64,000 bases of DNA from a virus (lineage: Duplodnaviria; Caudoviricetes). This document shows, piece by piece, positions 2,008 to 61,278 of this stretch (the stretch's first letter is position 1; each line of letters opens with the position of its first letter). The stretch is taken from positions 32,001-96,000 of IMG/VR virus record IMGVR_UViG_3300036803_000075. One strand, 5' to 3'. The notes under the pieces were generated by a model. The model did not search any database, had not been told where the DNA came from, and worked only from the letters and a program-made list of their open reading frames with translations. Position numbers and translations under genes: made by a program.

Positions 2008-3945
2008 TCAACGGTAGAAGGCCTTGACTTCGTCCAGGCTGGTGGTCCGCTTTGCCGGCGGCAGCCCCCGCAGGATCTGGGAGCCCCAGCCGGTGGCGAG
2101 CCGGCTGTCCAGGATGGCAACAACCGCCCGGTCGTCAGTCCGGCGGATGGCCCGGCCGAAGGCCTGCAGCAGCACCAGAGTCATGTTCGGAATGGTCAGG
2201 CCGAAGAAGGACTTGCCACCGTTGCGCTCGAAGATCTCGGTGCGAGCCTCCACAATCGGGTCGCCTGGGATAGCGAACGGCATCTTGTCGATGACGACCA
2301 GCCGGCAGCACTCGCCCTCGAAGCTGACACCGGTCATGAAGCTCTTCAGCGCCAGGAGCACCGAGTTGGGCTCCTCGACCTTGCGCTGGGCCAGCTCCTT
2401 GTTGGTGAATCCCTCACCCTGCATGTAGACGGTGTAGCCCTTCTTGCGGAGCTTGGCACCGACCGTCTTGTACGACAGCTGCATGGACTCGTCGCTGGTA
2501 AACAGCAGCAGGGCGCCGCCGCCGGCAGCCTCCACCATCTCCTGGGTCATCGCGGTGGCGTAGGTGAGCCAGGCGCCCCGCAGCTTCGGGCTGGGAGCCT
2601 CCTTGGCCGGAGTGAACAGCAGCGCCTGCTTGCTGTAGTCGAACGGCGTTCCCACGTCCAGGGTGCGCGCGCCCTCCAGACCCAGCTTCTGGGAGACGAA
2701 GTCGAAGCGGTTGTTTACCGTCAGCGTGGCGCTCACCAGGACGGCGGAGACGCGCTCCCACAGCCAGGCCTTCAGGAACGGGGCCACCGAGATCGGAGAG
2801 GCCTTGAAGATCTTGACCTCGACCTCTTGGCCGCGCACCGTACGAGTCTCGGACTCGGTCCAGCGGACGTACTCGCTGTCGTCAGCGGAGACGACCTCGC
2901 CGAGATGGGTGGCGTAGTTGGAGGCCCGCTTGGCCAGCATCCGGCGCTTGATCTCACCCTTACGGGCATCGCCGTTGCGGATGTCCATCTGACGGATGGC
3001 CTTGGCCAACGACTGCAGTGCGTTGATCAGGTCGATCGGAGCGTCCTGGTTCTCCACGAACCAGGACAACGGCAGCCGGCGAGTGGAGGGGAGGGAGTCC
3101 CAGAATCGGTCCGCCGCGTCCATCACCCGGTTGCCGTGCTCGCTCTGCTGGTGCTGTGCCCGCTGGAAGCCGTCGACCTCGGTCAGCAGGTGCACGATGC
3201 CGGCCCGCTTGACCTCGAAGGTCAGCGCGTTGGTGACGATCTCCTCCAGCTCGTGGGCCTCGTCGATGATCACGGCGTCGTACTCGCCCAGCATGCTGAC
3301 CTCGCCGTCCGTCATCCGGCGGAGGTTGGTGTCGGTGGCCAGCAGCGCGGTGTTGGTCACGACCAGCTGGGCCTCTTTGGCCGCAGTCTTGGCCTTCTCG
3401 GCAAAACAGCCCTGGGCGAAGGGGCATTGGGTCTTACCAGGGCACTCGTTGGAGGTCGAGGCCAGTAGGCGGAACTGGTCCTTGGTGACCACGGTGGAGA
3501 AGTGCTCGCGGTCTCCCGAGTGCTCCGGATTGGCGTCCAGCTCGGCCCGCATCGCGTCCAGCGGCACCTTGGTCTTGTCGACGCTGGCGGCCTTGGCCTC
3601 GCAGAAGTAGTTGCTACGACCCTTCAGGAGAGCCCACTTGAACGGGACGCCCAGGTTGGCCTGAAGGAAGGGCACGTCCTTGTTGGCGTACTGCTCTTGG
3701 AGCGCGATCGTGGCGGTGGCGATGATGACCCGCAGACCGGACAGGATGGCGGGAATCATGGTGGCCAGCGACTTGCCGACACCGGTTCCGGCCTGCATGA
3801 GGCCCAAGGTCTGCTCCGCCAGTACCGCCTCGACGAACGTAGCGCCCTTGGTCTGCTGCGGCCGGCGCTCGTATCCAGGCAGTTTGGCCTTCAGCACCTT
3901 CTCGGCATCGGCGAAGTTGGTGGGGATGAGGGCGGTGGCGGTCAT
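2008..3945 (-). CDS. DinG/YoaA-family ATP-dependent helicase (Fe-S type)
   Basis: Q motif ERRPQQ, Walker A QAGTGVGKS, KGRSNYFC, Cys cluster, DEAH box, VLVSATL, QAFGRAIRR motif VI. Confidence 0.93.
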   Translation of the reverse strand: MTATALIPTNFADAEKVLKAKLPGYERRPQQTKGATFVEAVLAEQTLGLMQAGTGVGKSLATMIPAILSGLRVIIATATIALQEQYANKDVPFLQANLGVPFKWALLKGRSNYFCEAKAASVDKTKVPLDAMRAELDANPEHSGDREHFSTVVTKDQFRLLASTSNECPGKTQCPFAQGCFAEKAKTAAKEAQLVVTNTALLATDTNLRRMTDGEVSMLGEYDAVIIDEAHELEEIVTNALTFEVKRAGIVHLLTEVDGFQRAQHQQSEHGNRVMDAADRFWDSLPSTRRLPLSWFVENQDAPIDLINALQSLAKAIRQMDIRNGDARKGEIKRRMLAKRASNYATHLGEVVSADDSEYVRWTESETRTVRGQEVEVKIFKASPISVAPFLKAWLWERVSAVLVSATLTVNNRFDFVSQKLGLEGARTLDVGTPFDYSKQALLFTPAKEAPSPKLRGAWLTYATAMTQEMVEAAGGGALLLFTSDESMQLSYKTVGAKLRKKGYTVYMQGEGFTNKELAQRKVEEPNSVLLALKSFMTGVSFEGECCRLVVIDKMPFAIPGDPIVEARTEIFERNGGKSFFGLTIPNMTLVLLQAFGRAIRRTDDRAVVAILDSRLATGWGSQILRGLPPAKRTTSLDEVKAFYR

Positions 3946-4011: not shown

Positions 4012-4374
4012 TCATCCACCATGTTCCTGGAGCCAATGCCAGGTCGCCAGAGCCTCCTGTCGGAGTGTCCGAGCTGGATGTAGGACGACACCGCCGCCAC
4101 CATGACAAGTGCAGCGCCCTTCCAGATGATCTACCGACCCCACCGTCGAACGGATCAAGCACTCTTTGTGGGTATACCCGTGCTTGGGTGTCGGCTTACC
4201 ATCCTCATCCGTGGCGACGATCCCCATAGAGACGCCCGAGTCTTCCTCCCAGAACTGCTCCGCACACCACAGGCAAACCTCGCCCACCGGGACGGGGACT
4301 CGGTCATTCCACCGCAGATAGTTGTTGTCGTCGTAGCAGATACCGCTCGCCCACGGTTCGCCAAACCAAAGCAT
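4012..4374 (-). CDS. Hypothetical Cys/His-rich protein
   Basis: ORF with GAGG SD; CxxC...HxxC motifs. Confidence 0.6.
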   Translation of the reverse strand: MLWFGEPWASGICYDDNNYLRWNDRVPVPVGEVCLWCAEQFWEEDSGVSMGIVATDEDGKPTPKHGYTHKECLIRSTVGSVDHLEGRCTCHGGGGVVLHPARTLRQEALATWHWLQEHGG

Positions 4375-4390
4375 GATGCCCTCCTCAAAG

Positions 4391-4464
4391 AGCCGCCTGG
4401 AGGATTCGAACCCCCGACCAGCGCATTACGAGTGCGCTGCTCTACCAGGCTGAGCTAAGGCGGC
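4391..4464 (-). tRNA. tRNA-Thr(CGT)
   Basis: Reverse complement GCCGCCTTAGCTCAGCCTGGTAGAGCAGCGCACTCGTAATGCGCTGGTCGGGGGTTCGAATCCTCCAGGCGGCT folds as a canonical cloverleaf. Confidence 0.93.
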
Positions 4465-6498: not shown

Positions 6499-6629
6499 TC
6501 CGCTGAGGACAGGTGCTGCAGGAGATGCATTAGGCCGCTCTGCCACGACCAACCCCACAGGGCTGGCGGAGGGATTCGAACCCTCGATTCCTGTTGAAAG
6601 AAGTAACCCGCGTGCGACGCTTCAGCGGA
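6499..6629 (-). ncRNA. Y-RNA-like element 2 (YrlA-type tRNA mimic)
   Basis: UCCGCUGAAGCG...GGUUACUUC...T-arm GAGGGUUCGAAUCCCUC, loop-closed acceptor stem, D-arm UGGCAGAGCGGCCUAAUGC...GUCCUCAGCGGA. Confidence 0.85.
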
Positions 6630-6657: not shown

Positions 6658-6789
6658 CGGAGCTGAGTACCAATCGAGAAAGGTAACGTAGCGTGCGGCC
6701 ATTACACTACAGACCGAAGTCCGCTGGGATTCGAACCCAGACTGCCCTTTTATCAGAAGGAAGTAACCCATCTCTGCGCTTCAGCACCG
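6658..6789 (-). ncRNA. Y-RNA-like element 3 (permuted tRNA mimic with a GAU anticodon-like loop)
   Basis: GCUGAAGCG...GGUUACUUC-CUU-CUGAUAA-AAGG, T-arm CUGGGUUCGAAUCCCAG, acceptor closed by UUCG, D-arm UAGUGUAAUGGCCGCAC...GUACUCAGC. Confidence 0.85.
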
Positions 6790-7161: not shown

Positions 7162-7300
7162 TGATGCCGAGAACCAAACGATGCAGGTACGTACGCGCGC
7201 TACCAATTGCGCCATCGCCCGAAGGAGCCGGGCGACCTGGACTCGAACCAGGAACCTCGTCATCCGATATGAAGTATCCCGCAAACACACATCGGCATCA
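7162..7300 (-). ncRNA. Y-RNA-like element 6 (YrlA-type tRNA mimic)
   Basis: UGAUGCCGAUGUG...GGAUACUUC...CCUGGUUCGAGUCCAGG, closed acceptor, D-arm UGGCGCAAUUGGUAGCGC...GUUCUCGGCAUCA. Confidence 0.85.
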
Positions 7301-8886: not shown

Positions 8887-9026
8887 CTTGGGCGAGTCAA
8901 CGCGCGGTGTCCATGAGGGTTTAGTTGCGCGAAGGCTGGTGCAAGAGGGGCCAAACCTTACGCTCCTGGGTCCAAGGCCCAGCCTGCTCGCCCGTTTTCT
9001 TCCTCGGTACGGCCGACTCCCGATGT

Positions 9027-15686: not shown

Positions 15687-16099
15687 GTACTGCCAAAGCG
15701 ATCTTCACCGCGATTGTCAGTCTGCTGGGCATAGCACTCATCCTGGTCGTGTTCGGTTTCTTCGCCGGCTGGTTCCGGGCTGGAGTCGAGGTCATCAGCC
15801 CTGAGAACGTCAAGGCTCAGTACCAGTTCGGCTACAGCTACGACCGTGGCATGGTCGCGCTGGCCGGCACCTGGTGTTCGGCGAAGCAGGCTGAAACGAC
15901 CGAGACGAACCCCGATTACAAGGCCCAGCGGGCCAGCCAGACACTGGCGTACGGCAATCAGTACAGGTCCGTCGAGGCTCAGTACGACGCGGCGATGGCC
16001 AACGCCTTCCAGGCAAAGCACGTCAAGCCCGCAGATCTGCCGCTGGTCGCTCCGACGTTGCCCGAGAGGGTGGCGAGCTTGGGGCTGACCTGCGGATAG
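15683..16099 (+). CDS. Membrane-anchored hypothetical protein
   Basis: GTG start overlapping the lipoprotein stop; N-terminal TM helix. Confidence 0.7.
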   Translation: MSTAKAIFTAIVSLLGIALILVVFGFFAGWFRAGVEVISPENVKAQYQFGYSYDRGMVALAGTWCSAKQAETTETNPDYKAQRASQTLAYGNQYRSVEAQYDAAMANAFQAKHVKPADLPLVAPTLPERVASLGLTCG

Positions 16100-16106
16100 T
16101 AAGACC

Positions 16107-16180
16107 GGGACGGTAGCTCAGTCGGTTAGAGCGGCGCTCTGATAAGGCGCAGGCCGGAGGTTCGATTCCTCCTCGTCCCA
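16107..16180 (+). tRNA. tRNA-Ile(GAT), also the leader of repeat array A
   Basis: GGGACGGTAGCTCAGTCGGTTAGAGCGGCGCTCTGATAAGGCGCAGGCCGGAGGTTCGATTCCTCCTCGTCCCA is a canonical cloverleaf. Confidence 0.93.
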
Positions 16181-16680
16181 CGGCTACTCAGGTAGCTCGT
16201 GGCGCGGTTGGGCATGGCACGGCCAGGCGAGGCACGGCCTGGTTTGGCGCGGCGGGGCATGGCTTGGGATTTACCAGGACGACCGGCAGTCTCTGGGGTT
16301 CGAGACCTCAGCGTCCACGCCCACTTTGGTGGGTCATGGTGCGGTCGGGCGTGGCATGGCGTGGCACGGCGTGATGCGGCAAGGCTTGGGATCTACGGGG
16401 TGACTGGCAGCCATCAGGGTTCGAGGCCCTGACATCCACGCTCGCTTTGGGCGGGTCAGGGCATGGCCGGACGCGGTTCGGCACGGTGGGGTGCGGCATG
16501 GCGTGGTGCGGCATGGCTAGGCCTGGCGTGGGATCTACAGCGGCAGTGGCACACGTCCTGGTTCGAGTCCAGGAGCCGCACGCACGGCTCGGCTGGGTCA
16601 GGTGTGGCAGGGCGACGTGTGGCATGGCTGGGAATATACAGCGGCAGATGCGTCCTGGTTCGAATCCGGGAGTCTGCACG
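16181..16680 (+). repeat. Array A: four GGY-NN pentamer tracts separated by tRNA-like minihelices (putative guide-RNA array)
   Basis: Tracts 16201-16265 (13 units), 16338-16387 (10), 16460-16529 (14), 16586-16630 (9); minihelices 16277-16317, 16398-16438, 16540-16580, 16644-16678. Confidence 0.92.
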
Positions 16681-16808
16681 CACTACGAAGCTGAGTAGGT
16701 TGGCTAAGCCAACCCCTATCAGCCTAACCACTACTTGACGCAGAGTCGAAAAGGTGATTCCATTCCTCTCGTCATAACCGCCAGAGATCAGGGAGAGGAA
16801 CCCCAAAA

Positions 16809-17414
16809 GTGGCGATCAACGATATGAAGCTAAAACTGACCGGGACGACCCCGGTGCTGTTTCACAACAGCCAGCTCGTCAACCCGTTCAACCCGATCAA
16901 CCGGGAGAAGAAGAAGCTCACGGACAAGCGCACCAAGCAGACCGACGAGGACCGCATCCAGGTCGCTCGGCTGGAATGGACAGGCGGCTGGTACTGGAAC
17001 GACGAGCACGGACCCATCCTGCCGATGATCAACGTCTACGCGGCGCTGCTGAAGGCGGCCAAGAGCACGCGCAACGGTCCTCTGGTCGACAAGGGCGTCA
17101 ACTTCTTGCGCCTGACCGAGCCCCTGCAGTACGACGGCCCCCGTGACCTGGACGGCCTGTGGGGCAACGGCATCGGCGAGGGTGGCGACCACCCCTCTCC
17201 GTACGTCGATTACCAGGCCGTCGGCCAGCAGGCGGTCAAGATCATGCGCTGCCGGCCGAAGCTGAGCGAGTGGGAGCTTGACACCGTCTTCGGAGTGGAC
17301 GACACGGTCATCGATCCCGAGGCGTTCCTCGGATTCATGGCCTACGCTGGCAAGTACATCGGTGTTGGGGACTTCCGTGCTATGTACGGTAAGTTCAGCG
17401 TCAAGGAGGTCTGA
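16809..17414 (+). CDS. Cas7/RAMP-like protein, putative effector of the GGY-NN array
   Basis: N-terminal strand LKLTGTTPVLFHN, PILP..NVYAALLKAAK, RCRP...W, C-terminal Gly-rich loop AGKYIGVGDFRAMYGKFSV; flanked on both sides by the arrays. Confidence 0.75.
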   Translation: MAINDMKLKLTGTTPVLFHNSQLVNPFNPINREKKKLTDKRTKQTDEDRIQVARLEWTGGWYWNDEHGPILPMINVYAALLKAAKSTRNGPLVDKGVNFLRLTEPLQYDGPRDLDGLWGNGIGEGGDHPSPYVDYQAVGQQAVKIMRCRPKLSEWELDTVFGVDDTVIDPEAFLGFMAYAGKYIGVGDFRAMYGKFSVKEV

Positions 17415-17415
17415 G

Positions 17416-17970
17416 TTGACTGCTATCTTCGACTCCGAAAACCCGCAGTGGCGGCCGATCTACGACGGTCTTAAGAAGGCCGGTCTCGAATTCGATCGTC
17501 TTTTCAGCTGGGACACACTGAAAGCCATCGCAGGATACGACATCCGGCTGAATCGCAGTGCCTTCTACGCGGCAGTAAAGCAGCTGGAAGAGCACGACAA
17601 GCGTACGTTGGTCAGTGTGTGGGGCAAGGGATATCGCGTGGCTCCAGCGCCCGAGCATCATAAGCTCGGGCTCAAGCACCAGCTCAAGGCCAAGCGTGCC
17701 GTACGGCGCGGCGCGCGCAAGGTCAAGGCGGCTGACACGTCTCATCTCACTGCCGAGCAGATCCACGCCAACGAGCAGCTGATCTTCCGACTCCATCGTC
17801 ACGAAACTCAGCTGATCAACCACGAGACCCGGATCAGCGCACTGGAGAGGGAGACTGGGAAAACTCGCCGTGAGCTGGACGAGTTGAACAAGCAGTCTGA
17901 GCTGGCACGCCGGCTCAAGGCGCTGGGTATCAATGTCCCCAAGAGTGCCCCTGACACCGTCGAGGGGTAA
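17416..17970 (+). CDS. Partner protein: putative winged-HTH plus coiled coil
   Basis: TTG start 1 nt after the RAMP stop with AGGAGG SD; wing-like LVSVWGKGYRV; C-terminal heptad pattern. Confidence 0.7.
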   Translation: MTAIFDSENPQWRPIYDGLKKAGLEFDRLFSWDTLKAIAGYDIRLNRSAFYAAVKQLEEHDKRTLVSVWGKGYRVAPAPEHHKLGLKHQLKAKRAVRRGARKVKAADTSHLTAEQIHANEQLIFRLHRHETQLINHETRISALERETGKTRRELDELNKQSELARRLKALGINVPKSAPDTVEG

Positions 17971-17973
17971 CAG

Positions 17974-19447
17974 GGCCTGGCCTGGCCGGGTGAGGCGGGA
18001 CGAGGCTAGGTGAGGCGAGGTTCGGCAACGTCGGGCCGGGTAGGGCGAGACTGGGCGCGGCGAGGTCAGGCTGGGTTGGACAAGGAAGCACAAAATGGGT
18101 GACTGGCAGTCTCCGAGGTTCGAGGCCTCGGCACCCACGCTCCTTTCGGGAGTCAAGACGGGGCAGGGCGCGGTGAGGTGTGGCCTGGTGGGGTGAGGCT
18201 TGGCGTGGTGAGGCTTGGGATTTTAAAATGGACGACCGGCAGCCACTAGGGTTCAAGGCCCTAGCGTTCACGCTCACTACGGTGAGTTGAGGCCCGGTTT
18301 GGTACGGCAAGGCGTGACAGGGCATGGCTCGGCCCGGCGAGGTCCGGCGCGGCAGGGCGCGGCATGATTGGGCGCCGTATGCCATGGCAAGGTGAGGCAT
18401 GGCAAGGAATTACAGAGCGAGCGGCACACTTCCGGGTTCGAGTCCTGGACGCTCGCGGCCGTCCTCGGGCGGCTCGTGGCAAGCCTAGGTTGGGTTTGGC
18501 ATGGCAATGTTAGGTAGGGCTCGGCTTGGTCCGGTGCGGCAAAGCGCGGTTAGGTTTGGCATGGCAACAAACTGGGTGAGCGGCACACTCTTCGGTCCGA
18601 GTCCGAAGCACCCACGGCTACTCCGGTAGCTCGTGGCTTGGTGCGGCGCGGCAGCGCATGGTTGGGCCTGGCATGGCAGGGAATTTACTGAGCGGATGGT
18701 CGTACGGGAGGTTCGACTCCTCTTGCGTTCACGCCCTCTTTGGGGGTCAGGGCACGGCTAGGCTGGGCGCGGTAGGGCTGGGTACGATTCGGTCTGGCGG
18801 GGCAAGGCTTGGGATATACCAGTGCGAATGGCATACCTCTCGGTTCGAGTCTGAGACGCTCACGCTCTCTTCGAGAGTCAGGGCAGGGCGACGCCAGGCA
18901 TGGTTAAGTTGGGTGCGGCTGGACGCGGTGCGGCAAGGTTTGACTTGACGTGGCAAGGCGAGGCAGAGCTGGGTCAGGCAGGGCAGCAACAACACTGTGT
19001 CGACGGTCTTCGAGAGGGTTCGACTCCCTCTGACACGCGCTCTCTTCGAGAGTCAGGGCGGGGCTAGGCAGGGCAACGTATGGCCCGGCGCGGTAAGGCT
19101 TGGCTAGGTTGGGTTGGGTCCGGTGGAGTGTGGCTAGGTATGGAGTGCCGACGGTCTGCGAGGAGGTTCGACTCCTTCTGGCACACGCTCTCTTCGGAGA
19201 GGCGGGGCTAGGTGCGGCGTGGCTTGGTGGGGCACGGTGCGGTCAGGCCGGGCATGACAAGGATCAAAAATCTGGACGAGCAGCACACTTCTGGGTGCGA
19301 GTCCCAGACGCCCACGCTCACTCCAGTGAGTACGTGGCCAGGCGTGGCATGGTAGGGCACGGTCCGGCTGGGTCGGGCGCGGTAGGGCTAGGCACTGGGC
19401 ATGGTTTGGTACGCCTAGGTGAGATGTGGCATGGCTTGGTATGGCAG
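17974..19447 (+). repeat. Array B: ten GGY-NN pentamer tracts separated by nine tRNA-like minihelices
   Basis: Tracts 17974-18083 (22), 18157-18216 (12), 18291-18405 (23), 18478-18567 (18), 18635-18679 (9), 18751-18810 (12), 18882-18986 (21), 19057-19141 (17), 19201-19260 (12), 19336-19447 (22, one 2-nt slip). Confidence 0.92.
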
Positions 19448-19468
19448 GGATCTGTTAAAATCCCTGCC

Positions 19469-19819
19469 ATGAGCACCTGAAGAGATCGAAAGCCAGCGCT
19501 GTCCGTCACCAAGGACGATTGTGAATGGCAGTATTTTCGAGCCGGCGGCCCTGGCGGTCAGCATCAAAACAAGACCTCGTCCGGGGCTCGGGTGATCCAC
19601 CATCCGTCCGGCGCCCGTGGCGAGTCCCGGGAGGAGCGCAGTCAGCTCCAAAACCGTAAGGCTGCCTGGCGCCGGATGGTGGCCGATCCGAAGTTCAAGA
19701 TCTGGATCAACACCCAGCTTTATGGTCTCGAGCTGGCGGAATCCAAGGTCGCCAGGGACATGGCGGAGAAGAACATCCGGGTCGAAGTCAAGAAAGACGG
19801 GAAATGGATATGCCAGTAG
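19469..19819 (+). CDS. RF-1-domain (GGQ) release-factor/peptidyl-tRNA-hydrolase-like protein with an in-frame TGA at codon 4
   Basis: Hand translation upstream of track ORF 19592: YFRAGGPGGQHQNKTSSGARVIHHPSG...ERSQLQNRKAAWRRM; begins ATG AGC ACC TGA AGA. Confidence 0.8.
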
Positions 19820-20360: not shown

Positions 20361-22435
20361 GCTGTCGGAGTCACCCAAGTAGTTCCATTCCACACCTTAA
20401 CGGGCGCCTGTACCCATGAGGTTCCATTCCAAATCTTTACTGGCGCATGCACCCAAGTAGTTCCATTCCACACCTTCATCGCGCCGCCGGAGGGGGCCGT
20501 GTACGTCTTCGTCAGCGTGATGTGGCTGGCACCCGAGGAGTCATAGCCGGTGCCCGTGACGGTGATCTGCTGGCCATTATCGACAACATCGAACCAGCCA
20601 TATTGCTGGCTGTAGACCGAGCTGCTCTGGGGCACCGGGTAGATCCCAGCGGAGTACGTACCGTTGCCGGCATAGGTTGTCTGGTCCAGCGGTGAGGCAC
20701 AGAAGATCTGCAGACCGCTCGGGGAGTGGGTCCCGTCATCCGCCGCCAGCACATGCAGGTCACCATGGATCATCATCACCCGGACACCGTTGGCGTTGAT
20801 GAAGTTGCCGATCTCCGTACGCTCGGTGTTGTAAGCCGACCAGGTGTCGTCGCCGACGTACGTGGTGCCGTTGTTCCACGCGTCCTCATGGAACCAGATC
20901 TTGACCGGCTCGGGCTGCAGCAGCTGAGCCTTCAGCCAGTCCTTCTGGGTGCTCCCGAGCTTGGTCTTGCTGGAGTTGTCCGTCTGGGCGATCGGACTCA
21001 TGTACGACCGGCCGTCGGTGCAGATATAGCGCACCCGGCCGGCCACGAAGGTGAAGTACGTTCCCGCGTTGTCCGCCGCCGGCAGCGTATAGCTCGGCAC
21101 CCGGTTCCGGTAGACGGACTGGGCAGCCGCGTGGGCGACCGCAGTACCGTCGTTGTTCGAGCCGCCGCCGGAGTCGTGGTCAGACCAGATGTAACTGATG
21201 CTGGTGCTGGAGAAGAGCGACTGCTGCCGCTGGCAGCTCATCACCTCGTCCCACGCCCGGTTGAACAACGTCGTGTCATTGGCCACGATGTCTCGGTAGT
21301 TCAGGTCTCCCAGGTGCTGGAAGAACAACGCCGTCCGAGATCCCGCCCCCACCGAGCCGGTGCGTGTGCGGATCTGGTCGAAGTTGATGTCATTACTGAA
21401 GGTCTTGGCACATGAGGCAGCAGCGAAGGAATAGCTAGCGGGGCTGCCTGCTACCGGGAACGTCCGCACCGTACCGACAGACTGGGTGTCGATCGTTCCG
21501 TCCAGCTCCAGACCGTAGTAGTACGTGGTGTTCGCAGTCAGCCCTGAAATAGCGAACTTAGCCAATCCATTGGCGTCAGGCGTGGCCGCGCTGGAAAAGA
21601 CTGGGCTCGTCAGCAGATCGCTAGTGGTAGAGACCTTCACCCTCGCGGACGCCGTGTTAACCGTTCGAGAGGAGACATTGAATCCAGTAGCGGTCGCTCC
21701 ACCGGCCCAACGGGAAAGGCAGGTCTGGTACATCGCTGGGTATCCGACATCGGAAAATCCCGCATTCGCTGCGTAATAAGCGATAGCGGCAGTGGCGTTA
21801 ACCGTCCCTACCACGCCGCAGTACATAGCCGTGCCGGTGTTGAATGTAGCCGTGCTGGTGATGGTCTGGGCAGGTGAGCCAAAGGCTGCAGTCGGGAAGG
21901 ATCGAACCTCCAGCTGCCCGACCGTGGCAGAGAAAGTCACCTTCCATTCAATGCGACCCCAGGTATTCGCCGTCAAGGCACCCGTGGTGGTCGTGGCGGC
22001 AGACGCTCCTGTCGAATCCCGAGCTGAGATCAGACCACTAGAAAGCACTCGCAGAGTAGCCATGATAGCGCCCGAAGTATTCAAGATCGCCATGACGGCT
22101 TGGGAGCTGCCTGGAAGCGAGGGAAAGTTAACGTCGATCCAGCCATAAATGGTGGTCGCGCTCGTCTGGAACATCCCCGCTGGACTAGCGGCGCCAGTGT
22201 TCCACCGGGTATACGCCTGGGCGTCGGTGGCATTCGCTACTACGTGAAGGGTATTGACTCCGGTCGACCGTACGACCGTATTGCTGTAGGCCAATGCTGC
22301 CGTACCACCGATCGTGGGCAAGAAGTCAAAGGCCCATCCAGGCCCACCACCAGAGTTGCCGGCAGTGGTAGGCATGTTAGGCACCACCAGCGCCGCACCA
22401 TTGGGGCCATTCAGGCTATTGAAAACTCGCGTCAT
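20357..22435 (-). CDS. Virion-associated protein: beta-sandwich + FN3-like + PhoD-like metallophosphoesterase
   Basis: FAAASC, HLGDLNYRD, IWSDHD, TDGRSY, LG..QKDWLK, IHGDLH motifs; C-terminal VKxWNGTxW x3; lies at the end of the tail module. Confidence 0.8.
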   Translation of the reverse strand: MTRVFNSLNGPNGAALVVPNMPTTAGNSGGGPGWAFDFLPTIGGTAALAYSNTVVRSTGVNTLHVVANATDAQAYTRWNTGAASPAGMFQTSATTIYGWIDVNFPSLPGSSQAVMAILNTSGAIMATLRVLSSGLISARDSTGASAATTTTGALTANTWGRIEWKVTFSATVGQLEVRSFPTAAFGSPAQTITSTATFNTGTAMYCGVVGTVNATAAIAYYAANAGFSDVGYPAMYQTCLSRWAGGATATGFNVSSRTVNTASARVKVSTTSDLLTSPVFSSAATPDANGLAKFAISGLTANTTYYYGLELDGTIDTQSVGTVRTFPVAGSPASYSFAAASCAKTFSNDINFDQIRTRTGSVGAGSRTALFFQHLGDLNYRDIVANDTTLFNRAWDEVMSCQRQQSLFSSTSISYIWSDHDSGGGSNNDGTAVAHAAAQSVYRNRVPSYTLPAADNAGTYFTFVAGRVRYICTDGRSYMSPIAQTDNSSKTKLGSTQKDWLKAQLLQPEPVKIWFHEDAWNNGTTYVGDDTWSAYNTERTEIGNFINANGVRVMMIHGDLHVLAADDGTHSPSGLQIFCASPLDQTTYAGNGTYSAGIYPVPQSSSVYSQQYGWFDVVDNGQQITVTGTGYDSSGASHITLTKTYTAPSGGAMKVWNGTTWVHAPVKIWNGTSWVQAPVKVWNGTTWVTPTA

Positions 22436-59702: not shown

Positions 59703-60059
59703 ATGGCCAACGAGCACTTCCCGCTGCGGTCGAAGATCATCCTGACAGTCGGGGGACTGCTGTTCCTGGGGCTCATCAGCATCACTGCGTGGGCTGGCTA
59801 CCAGTACCAGGGACAGACCCGGTCCAATACCGACTTCGTCAACCAGGTCCACGCCCAGCATCTCGGCAACGGGATTTCCGATCCCGAGCTGATCCAGGCC
59901 GGCATGTGGGTCTGTGTTGAGGCGGACCAGCCGACCACCACGGCGGCATTGGTCGCCGGCCTGGGAAAGCGGTCCAACTTCCCAGCCGCCACGGCGAAGG
60001 CGGTGATCAAGCCAGCTCTGCAGAACTACTGTCCCGTCAATGAATCACACGTGAAATGA
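59703..60059 (+). CDS. DUF732-like membrane-anchored protein
   Basis: TM helix followed by F...V...I.AG..VC...A...YCP. Confidence 0.6.
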   Translation: MANEHFPLRSKIILTVGGLLFLGLISITAWAGYQYQGQTRSNTDFVNQVHAQHLGNGISDPELIQAGMWVCVEADQPTTTAALVAGLGKRSNFPAATAKAVIKPALQNYCPVNESHVK

Positions 60060-60079
60060 TCACAACGAAAGGTAGCTAC

Positions 60080-61156
60080 ATGAAGCGGAAGCTTCTCAGC
60101 CTGCTGGGCGCGGTCGCACTCACCGCAGGACTGATCACGATTGGAGCGACGCCGGCTCAGGCGCTGCCCACGTGGCAGGTAAACCAGGCCATCATCAGTT
60201 CACCGGACGATGGCAGCACCCCGTGGGCGAGGGACTCCTTCACCCGCAAGACGACCATCAAGCAGACCGGCACCGGCACCTACCGGTTGGACGTGACCGA
60301 CACCGGCACCTTCAAGACCGGAACTGCTGGACCGCACCTCGGCGGTTCCAACGGCGGTGACATAGTCAACCCCGACGTGGTGGGCACCTTCAGCGGTAAT
60401 CTTCACTTCAACGTGACGGGCACCCTGCTGAACAGTGCCGCGTTGGCCGCGCTGCAGACCTCGTACGACTACACGGGGGTGGCGGACAAGAACAGCGTTC
60501 CGGCCGATCTTCCGACCACGGGAACTTGGTACAAACACTTCTTCTCAGCCACGACTACCGCTGACTTCTTTGGCTGGACGTGGACCTATCAGACTCCGTG
60601 CGAAAAGATGATCCAGTCTGAGGCTGATGGCGTCGATGGCAATGTCGTCGGATACAACTGCGTCACTCCGGGCATCCCGACGTATACCAACGCCACCTGC
60701 TCCAACCCGTACGCGATCTTGCACATCCCAGCTACCGTGGGTGTCACGTACAACTACGCAGACGGTCGCGGTGTGGTCGCCGGCTCGGACGTGGTCATCA
60801 ATGCCACGGCCGCCACTGGCTACAAGATCACTACTGGGGCCACCGCGAGCTGGGAGTATGCCACCCAGCAGGCCCCGCAGCCGTCTGACTGCCACCCGCC
60901 GGTCAACCGCTACCCGGGCAACCCCCGGCCGACCGGTACCAAGGCATACTACGTTTCCACCGCCGGCCAGACCTGGCAGACAGTCCTGAACAACCTGCAC
61001 TACAGCGGCACCAACATCGCCGCCTTGCAGCAGTGGAACAAGACCCACTCCGCCTCATACGCCGGCAAGACCTCCAGTCCGGTGTACTCCAGCTGGTGGA
61101 ACCTCAACAAAGCCTCGGTCATCGCGGTCCCAACCAGCTCTCCGGGCGTTCTGTAG
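60080..61156 (+). CDS. Secreted multi-domain protein (signal peptide, AQA cleavage site)
   Basis: MKRKLLSLLGAVAL...AQA; beta-rich domains. Confidence 0.7.
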   Translation: MKRKLLSLLGAVALTAGLITIGATPAQALPTWQVNQAIISSPDDGSTPWARDSFTRKTTIKQTGTGTYRLDVTDTGTFKTGTAGPHLGGSNGGDIVNPDVVGTFSGNLHFNVTGTLLNSAALAALQTSYDYTGVADKNSVPADLPTTGTWYKHFFSATTTADFFGWTWTYQTPCEKMIQSEADGVDGNVVGYNCVTPGIPTYTNATCSNPYAILHIPATVGVTYNYADGRGVVAGSDVVINATAATGYKITTGATASWEYATQQAPQPSDCHPPVNRYPGNPRPTGTKAYYVSTAGQTWQTVLNNLHYSGTNIAALQQWNKTHSASYAGKTSSPVYSSWWNLNKASVIAVPTSSPGVL

Positions 61157-61177
61157 CTCGGAACACGAAACTCGCAC

Positions 61178-61237
61178 GGCGTGGTTGGGCCAGGTGTGGC
61201 GCGGCTGGGTGCGGCGGGGCACGGCACGGCTAGGTAA
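61178..61237 (+). repeat. Orphan GGY-NN tract (12 units)
   Basis: GGCGT GGTTG GGCCA GGTGT GGCGC GGCTG GGTGC GGCGG GGCAC GGCAC GGCTA GGTAA; intergenic. Confidence 0.88.
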
Positions 61238-61243
61238 AACACG

Positions 61244-61278
61244 CAACAGCCCCGGAGAGCGAATCTCCGGGGCTGTTG
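61244..61278. terminator. Terminator hairpin after the orphan tract
   Basis: CAACAGCCCCGGAGA-GCGAA-TCTCCGGGGCTGTTG. Confidence 0.7.

Follow-up and report, generated by a model that had tools for sequence, protein, structure and literature searches.

Transfer RNA-like minihelices between the guide RNA tracts of a VIPR locus in a phage genome

Organization of the locus

The window analyzed here is a stretch of 64,000 nucleotides that covers bases 32001–96000 of the 107.7-kb IMG/VR virus record IMGVR_UViG_3300036803_000075, which has a G+C content of about 62%. The window contains a VIPR locus in which tracts of GG-containing pentamers alternate with minihelices shaped like the acceptor and T-arm part of a transfer RNA (tRNA). 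Fourteen tracts of 9–21 GG pentamers, all on the plus strand, flank the vipr gene on both sides. In the unit of a tract, two free bases precede GG and a pyrimidine, and a single 5-nucleotide phase is maintained from the base after the discriminator of one element to the beginning of the next element. The first-pass annotation of this DNA had proposed 13 minihelices, and direct reading of the sequence finds each of them in its place on the plus strand. It had also claimed an element after every tract except the last, and indeed tracts 1–13 each precede a minihelix, while tract 14 ends in a plain hairpin. The bit scores given below are from the covariance model R1. Its seed is formed by 12 copies from the window, the scores of which (40–62 bits) are therefore a product of its construction. 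All features of the locus described below are on the plus strand.

Array A is headed by a true tRNA-Ile(GAT) gene (16107–16181), which was identified by ARAGORN and scores 71 bits with the Rfam tRNA model. Tract 1 (16182–16276) is composed of a 5' hairpin and 15 GG pentamers in one phase. It is followed by minihelix 1 (16277–16317; seed copy, 58.8 bits), the minimum free energy (MFE) structure of which is the two-helix fold. Tract 2 (16318–16397) has 11 GG pentamers and precedes minihelix 2 (16398–16438; 56.9 bits), and tract 3 (16439–16539), with 15 GG pentamers, precedes minihelix 3 (16540–16580; 57.4 bits). The array closes with tract 4 (16581–16643), which has nine GG pentamers, and minihelix 4 (16644–16678), a reduced copy that is not part of the seed and scores 25.5 bits. 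Its MFE structure has two helices of 6 base pairs each and a z-score of -3.7. The vipr gene (16809–17414) encodes a 201-residue Cas7-like RAMP protein. It is followed by a vap-like accessory gene with a TTG start codon (17416–17970), which is assigned to phrog_5926 and identified by weak pairwise similarity.

Array B begins directly after the vap stop codon with tract 5 (17971–18095), composed of 19 GG pentamers and followed by minihelix 5 (18096–18137; 61.8 bits). Tract 6 (18138–18228) and minihelix 6 (18229–18270; 53.6 bits) precede tract 7 (18271–18414), which is the longest, with 21 GG pentamers. Minihelix 7 (18415–18455; 57.3 bits) has G as the discriminator. After tract 8 (18456–18572), minihelix 8 (18573–18614; 56.6 bits) carries C at the U55 position of the T-loop, and after tract 9 (18615–18688), minihelix 9 (18689–18731; 40.0 bits) contains one extra base and a T-stem of 7 base pairs. 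Tract 10 (18732–18820) is followed by minihelix 10 (18821–18862; 56.1 bits), which has one U-U mismatch in the acceptor. Tract 11 (18863–18995), minihelix 11 (18996–19037; 51.0 bits), tract 12 (19038–19144), minihelix 12 (19145–19185; 50.3 bits), and tract 13 (19186–19272) continue the alternation. Minihelix 13 (19273–19314; 55.5 bits) contains an A-C mismatch in the acceptor, AG in place of the linker GG, and G at T-loop position 55. The last tract, tract 14 (19315–19447), has an internal phase shift and no minihelix after it. Direct reading shows that the array is closed by a terminal hairpin (19443–19468) instead.

Identification of the arrays as VIPR guides

The AlphaFold2 model of the 201-residue protein has a predicted local distance difference test score (pLDDT) of 93. 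The best Foldseek matches of the model are the type VII Cas7 protein and Csm3 (E 3e-5, probability 1.0). Comparison with Csm, Csm3, and Cmr4 structures by VIA gave Z values of 10.2, 9.6, and 9.5, and the top neighbors in both searches are all RAMPs of the Cas7 family. In a tblastn comparison, the protein is 27.9% identical to the VIPR-locus protein of phiSUSP1 over 98% of its length (E 2e-17). The phiSUSP1 gene has one pentamer tract upstream and three downstream, in agreement with the publication, and a pentamer pattern search found tracts of the same kind flanking the homologs in LittleE and Escherichia coli phage wV8. The 184-residue product of the gene directly after vipr has a weak similarity to the neighbor of vipr in SUSP1 (26%, E 3e-5), and its similarity to LittleE gp33 is also weak. 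A Pfam scan of this protein gave no family at the cut-off.

VIPR systems, published in preprints in 2026 and proposed to be older than CRISPR, comprise a Vipr RAMP protein, a vap gene, and guide RNAs (vrRNAs) of 9–16 GGY/NN repeats, with a minimum of at least four (10.64898/2026.04.26.720920, 10.64898/2026.04.26.720927, 10.64898/2026.10.15.759431). The locus in the window is a type II-like VIPR system and its tracts are vrRNAs, because the protein has a Cas7-like fold and homology to SUSP1, and because GGY/NN pentamer tracts flank its gene. It shares with the type II systems of Escherichia phage SUSP1 and the P. fulva prophage the Vipr RAMP and the flanking same-strand arrays of GGY/NN pentamers, and the small gene adjoining vipr may correspond to their vap gene. 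Tracts in the window reach 21 GG units, compared with 9–16 in published type II VIPR. The idea of guide arrays put forward in the first-pass annotation is thus borne out by the fold and the SUSP1 homology. The accompanying idea that host tRNA processing replaces Cas6 is a fair analogy only, since VIPR systems, to our knowledge, have no Cas6.

Other roles were considered for the pentamer tracts: a site for a TRAP-like ring protein, a sponge of the CsrA or Hfq type, and two-tier G-quadruplexes or R-loop origins. All of them were dropped, given the Cas7-like fold and the homology to SUSP1. A search for targets of five guides, using a 1-nucleotide skip rule and exact patterns of 12 dinucleotides, gave no match in IMG/VR or in the species genome set.

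A solitary vrRNA-like tract of 12 pentamers is located 42 kb from the VIPR locus (61176–61235, plus strand). It comes right behind the stop codon of an open reading frame for 366 residues (60056–61156) and is followed by a strong, terminator-like hairpin (61245–61277) and by no minihelix. The tract is similar to the 'solo vrRNAs' in the VIPR preprint of October 2026, although its own phage is Vipr-positive.

Structure and covariation of the minihelices

Twelve of the 13 minihelices share one layout. The acceptor-like stem starts with G and has 5 base pairs, or 6 in about half of the copies. It continues into an 11-nucleotide linker with the consensus A-N-N-G-G-C-A-N-N-C-N and a T-arm composed of a 6-base-pair stem and a 7-nucleotide loop of the GGTTCGA type. 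The complementary 3' strand and A followed by CGC or CGG complete the element. This is the arrangement that the first-pass annotation had described as a stem of 5–6 nucleotides, a GG-containing linker of about 11 nucleotides, a T-arm, the 3' strand, and ACG(C). Copy 4 deviates from it, as its linker has only 3–4 nucleotides and lacks the GG. The 11 linker nucleotides take the place of the D-arm, anticodon arm, and variable loop of a canonical tRNA. The only calls that ARAGORN and the Rfam tRNA model make in the window are five real tRNAs, and the elements are not among them, in line with the proposed absence of an anticodon arm. In copy 13 alone, the first G of the linker GG is replaced by A and the second U of the T-loop by G. 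The double change may be linked, affecting positions that pair in the tRNA elbow, or it may be plain decay.

Pairing was counted in a MAFFT alignment of the 13 copies, over 11 pairs in two helices. Standard pairs make up 96.5% of the cells, both sides have changed in eight of the 11 pairs, and there are 44 compensatory cells. None of 500 shuffles equaled this result, and sliding the 3' partner by 1–3 columns lowered the pairing to 29–56%. The earlier observation that the stems differ in sequence and keep their pairing is thereby put on a quantitative footing. A check by covariance model had also been suggested, and the model from 12 copies recovers the left-out copy 4 with an E-value of 3.6e-4. 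A scan of the 107.7-kb record with R1 returned the 12 seed copies and copy 4 (25.5 bits), all on the plus strand, and no further full-length match.

The covariation bears on the proposal that the elements act as DNA, either as recombination or attachment-type sites that shuffle guide units, or as transcription terminators. The 3' halves of tRNA genes are common integrase targets, and the guide units seem to have been duplicated, with near-identical 5' hairpins in tracts 11 to 13. The compensatory changes, however, preserve pairing and not sequence, and all copies are on the transcribed strand. A U-tract is absent, and none of the elements showed a terminator pattern in the scan. We therefore regard a function at the DNA level as highly improbable.

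Four lone T-arm matches to R1, with loops of the GGTTCGA type and 5-base-pair stems, are located elsewhere in the window, at 6569–6585, 6724–6740, and 7236–7252 on the minus strand, and at 8966–8982 on the plus strand. They have no ARAGORN tRNA call, lie near real tRNA-Leu, tRNA-Met, and tRNA-Trp genes, and may be further non-canonical tRNA-like genes.

Distribution of the element in other phages

A pattern scan of IMG/VR followed by a search with R1 identified many full-length matches outside the window. In all, R1 has 64 further matches in unrelated contigs. The alignment of 74 distinct family members was fitted to R1 and hence leans towards the model; in it, 99.1% of the cells are paired, double changes occur in nine of the 11 pairs, and 241 cells are compensatory. 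Slid controls on the same alignment reach 34–50%. The T-loop is strongly conserved, with T, T, C, G, and A present in 74, 72, 74, 71, and 74 members, respectively. The closing G53–C61 pair is present in 73 of the 74 members, and the two bases of the linker GG, in 73 and 74 members, are followed by C-A. The first base G+1, its partner C72, and C74 after the discriminator vary little or not at all, and 63 of 71 copies have A as the discriminator.

Such conservation leaves little credit for the notion that the minihelices are functionless remnants of tRNA genes in the course of decay. Mismatches in copies 10 and 13, the loss in copy 13 of the GG and of a T-loop U, and the resemblance of the acceptors of copies 1, 6, and 13 to positions 2–6 of tRNA-Ile would suit such remnants. 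Many phages, with 74 distinct copies among them, have nevertheless retained the same reduced architecture and linker at 99% pairing, and we give the remnant explanation next to no weight.

The family occurs in two contexts. VIPR loci with the element include a 63.8-kb JGI contig (L132), in which seven copies are distributed among tracts on either side of vipr, the metagenomic sequences L133/L134 and L112, and named phages: LittleE, the Gordonia phages Trine and MakoManhole, and the Mycobacterium abscessus prophage prophiBWHA-1. Trine and MakoManhole have one copy ahead of the first tract. The VIPR loci of SUSP1 and wV8 contain tracts and no R1 matches. The second context is that of ordinary operons. 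Streptomyces phage Endor2 (L084) and related phages carry a copy between the stop codon of one early gene and the ribosome-binding site of the next, gene after gene. No pentamer tract is present near these intergenic elements, and other contigs also carry intergenic copies. By megablast, 118 records of the cluster BD type share the element region of Endor2. Vipr was sought in five phage records that carry minihelices, of which four have a completeness of at least 91%. No match was found, although the positive control worked, and none of the 128 records that match Vipr by tblastn comes from a Streptomyces phage. One covariance model thus joins a VIPR context and an mRNA context, and the element is not specific to Vipr.

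The elements overlap with two annotated features. The only 'tRNA-Arg' annotated in the Endor2 region (4370–4452; L131, MT711979) overlaps the end of a coding sequence and coincides with an intergenic minihelix. The annotation probably mistakes the mimic for a tRNA. In Trine (L137, NC_047991), three R1 minihelices and a 12-pentamer tract at 3081–3356 are located inside the annotated coding sequence of gp40 (3088–3891), a 'hypothetical protein' that directly follows the Vipr homolog gp41. At least the first part of gp40 is probably a mis-call over a vrRNA array.

In prophiBWHA-1 (L136, 2421–2490) and MakoManhole (L138, 1697–1760), the tract upstream of vipr extends into the vipr ribosome-binding site with no separator, and this guide may be part of the vipr 5' leader, possibly with a role in autoregulation. 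In wV8 (L010, 3768–3825 and 5161–5218) and phiSUSP1 (L135, 3060–3110 and 3215–3260), a repeated A/T-rich element, annotated DR_4 in wV8, precedes each tract and a hairpin follows it. The guides of the coliphages look separately bounded and not tRNA-punctuated.

Among cultured phages, the nearest protein relatives of the window are actinophages such as Mycobacterium phage LittleE. The window contains phage-type genes for an SNF2 helicase, a minor tail protein, and an RF-1 domain protein. A megablast search against the phage collection gave no close DNA relative of the window, and no relatives of the locus were found through the upstream 452-residue protein. A 39-nucleotide tandem repeat of 2.7 copies with 77% matches is present at 20372–20476, at the 3' end of the region of a minus-strand PhoD-like hydrolase gene.

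Proposed processing of the guide arrays

We hypothesize, with a confidence somewhat above even, that the 13 elements are anticodon-arm-less tRNA mimics that punctuate the two guide arrays and are excised by both RNase P and RNase Z. The arrays would probably be transcribed as long plus-strand precursors together with the upstream tRNA-Ile, vipr, and vap. Each mimic folds as a stack of the acceptor and T-arm, with the T-loop probably locked to the linker GG as in the tRNA elbow. Host RNase P would cut before G+1, so that the preceding guide would end after a short A/U-rich leader, and host RNase Z would cut after the discriminator and create the 5' end of the next guide, which begins with C and a small protective hairpin. 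The freed guides would then be coated by Vipr, and the mimic of about 41 nucleotides would presumably be released as a by-product.

We infer cleavage by the two enzymes from several properties of the locus. The elements keep the determinants of recognition: the coaxial stack of acceptor and T-arm, the T-loop, and a GG able to form the elbow. RNase P measures the stack of acceptor and T-stem from the elbow, and does not do so by sequence (PMC4919913). The true tRNA-Ile before tract 1 is followed by the same CGG trailer, hairpin, and tract as the minihelices, and it has no encoded CCA. The phage's own tRNAs are likewise encoded without CCA, and they terminate in A-C-G or A-C-A. The missing CCA and the shared A-C-G/A trailer fit 3' processing of the RNase Z type. 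A hairpin starts at position +2 after the discriminator in 12–13 of the 14 units, which would suit the protection of a processed, monophosphorylated 5' end. In other types of VIPR, hammerhead ribozymes occupy the same position between guides (10.64898/2026.04.26.720920), and this slot is therefore a cleavage site in VIPR at large. General punctuation of the tRNA type is favored because a true tRNA-Ile fills the same slot as the minihelices and because the elements separate genes in phages that lack Vipr. Further points in favor are the recurrence of the element in independent VIPR loci, the copies ahead of the first tract in Trine and MakoManhole, the variable spacer before G+1, and the two tracts of the window that do without a minihelix (tract 14 and the solitary tract). 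A scan that covered sigma-70 patterns found no promoter or terminator consensus per unit beyond chance, which counts on the same side.

Several observations weigh against excision by both enzymes. A canonical tRNA stack consists of a 7-base-pair acceptor and a 5-base-pair T-stem, 12 base pairs in total. The stack of the minihelices is 5 + 6 = 11 base pairs in all copies; a twelfth pair, between N-1 and the 'discriminator', is possible in six of the 13 window copies, so that the stack differs from the 12 base pairs of tRNA in about half of them. Folding energies of single copies are unremarkable (z-scores of -0.1 to -3.7), and the support for the structure is covariation, not stability. The acceptor mismatches in copies 10 and 13 count on the same side. 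The restriction of the promoter scan to the sigma-70 consensus leaves room for independent transcription of the units. No published RNA ends for such elements were found in the literature. The tail of the SUSP1 guide, about 40 nucleotides long, is retained at the 3' end, where it caps the filament and is considered a requirement for complex formation, and the minihelix matches this tail in size and position.

The last point leads to a different proposal, which we consider possible and yet doubtful. The minihelix would be a retained 3' tail or handle of the preceding guide. RNase Z or another nuclease would trim its 3' side, but without a cut by RNase P it would stay joined to the tract. A tRNA-like structure, possibly extended by CCA, would cap the mature vrRNA and protect its 3' end or assist Vipr assembly, like the SUSP1 pseudoknot. 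The conserved tail after the last repeat of SUSP1 indeed remains part of the mature RNA, and possession of a shared tail is regarded as a mark of competence for forming the Vipr complex. In the window, tracts 1–13 each precede a minihelix, and the two tracts without one, tract 14 and the solitary tract, end in another hairpin. The same family, however, is found between protein genes of phages that have no Vipr. The copies before the first tract of Trine and MakoManhole would be 3' tails with no guide to cap, and a true tRNA takes the corresponding place in the window. The spacer from the last GG unit to G+1 is A/U-rich and varies from 0 to 12 nucleotides, and it is therefore a poor fit to a fixed cap. 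RNase P normally accepts an accessible stack of acceptor and T-arm as a substrate if the leader is free, and the P. fulva VIPR system works without a pseudoknot tail.

These contexts speak against a handle specific to Vipr and less against a general function as a 3' cap, which we keep as a minority possibility of some standing. In a particular form of it, the guides of actinophage VIPR systems would mature as tRNA-capped RNAs: RNase Z would cut alone, the host CCA-adding enzyme would tail the mimic, and the pathways of tRNA quality control and stability would treat the guide as a tRNA. We regard this maturation route as rather unlikely. If it were correct, the mimic would serve as separator and cap at once, and tRNA-like 3' ends would also be expected on early mRNAs in over 100 cultured Streptomyces phages.

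One more possible role concerns the excised element itself. The mimics could themselves be the product, as excised, CCA-tailed small RNAs that act as decoys or sponges for host factors recognizing the top of tRNA, such as toxins that modify the acceptor end, with the guides merely sharing the transcript. Cleavage alone may not require the strict conservation seen at C74, the discriminator, and the elbow nucleotides, and stable excised t-element RNAs with an added C or CCA are known from plant mitochondria (PMC1920247). The position of the elements, on the other hand, is strictly between units, both in arrays and in operons, and their stem sequences drift freely, with no sequence kept for a specific partner. 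We consider a decoy function very improbable as the main role, and it would not conflict with excision of the mimics by RNase P and RNase Z but could accompany it.

Comparison with known systems

The SUSP1 guides end in a hairpin-pseudoknot tail, whereas a tRNA mimic is located between the guides here and in other actinophages. A close parallel within VIPR is provided by the vrRNA arrays of types I and V interspersed with hammerhead ribozymes (fig. S19 of the preprint 10.64898/2026.04.26.720920), which also have an RNA-cleavage module between guides. The hammerhead arrays cleave themselves, whereas those described here would use host RNase P and RNase Z. A search of positions 15900–19700 for ribozyme families of Rfam, at E-values up to 10, gave only matches of the tRNA type.

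The t-elements of plant mitochondria are tRNA-like structures with the T-arm motif GGTTCRANYCC, and the ends of these structures coincide with RNA ends that were mapped and ascribed to RNase P and RNase Z (Forner et al. 2007, PMC1920247). They share with the minihelices an acceptor-like stem stacked on a GGTTCRANYCC T-arm within a longer transcript, although for the phage elements the embedding in a transcript is suggested by their position. The t-elements are organellar, flank mRNAs, and are mostly imperfect cloverleaves, whereas the phage elements are uniform, have no anticodon arm, and flank guides.

Engineered polycistronic tRNA-gRNA arrays were reportedly introduced by Xie, Minkenberg and Yang in 2015, with endogenous RNase P and RNase Z freeing each guide. 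A description of this design is found in PMC4736081. In both cases guides alternate with tRNA-shaped units. The engineered arrays are synthetic and contain full tRNAs and Cas9 guides for use in eukaryotes, whereas the arrays of the window are natural, contain minimal mimics and VIPR guides, and serve in bacteria. In mascRNA at the 3' end of MALAT1 and in mitochondrial tRNA punctuation, a tRNA or tRNA-like unit sets the ends of neighboring transcripts through RNase P and RNase Z. Both are eukaryotic, and mascRNA is a single cloverleaf-like unit and not a 13-fold array.

Implications for VIPR and actinophage transcripts

VIPR itself is already known from the preprints, and punctuation of the tRNA type from organelles and engineered tRNA-guide arrays. 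The texts and one supplement of the VIPR preprints contain no mention of tRNA, RNase P, or a minihelix, a statement that applies to their words and not to their figures, so that a wordless drawing could be missed. The papers on Cluster J and Endor2 do not discuss these elements. What is added here is 13 covarying copies in one locus, a model that spans two contexts, the presence of a true tRNA in the slot of the minihelices, and cultured phages, known by name, that carry the element.

The cutting of VIPR guide arrays has so far been known only for self-cleaving units with hammerheads or for units that are separately bounded. If the minihelices are excised as we propose, nature would have reached the multiplexing of guides by tRNA long before it was engineered. 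The supply of guides would be tied to an essential host pathway that is hard for the host to switch off, and VIPR arrays would be portable into any organism without a dedicated processing enzyme. The minihelices also explain some probable annotation errors, such as the 'tRNA-Arg' of Endor2 and the 'gp40' reading frame over the Trine array. As LittleE, Trine, and MakoManhole are cultured, the idea is directly testable. Early operons of Streptomyces phages of cluster BD, and of other actinophages, contain intergenic R1 sites, which point to a wider and apparently undescribed tRNA-style punctuation of phage transcripts.

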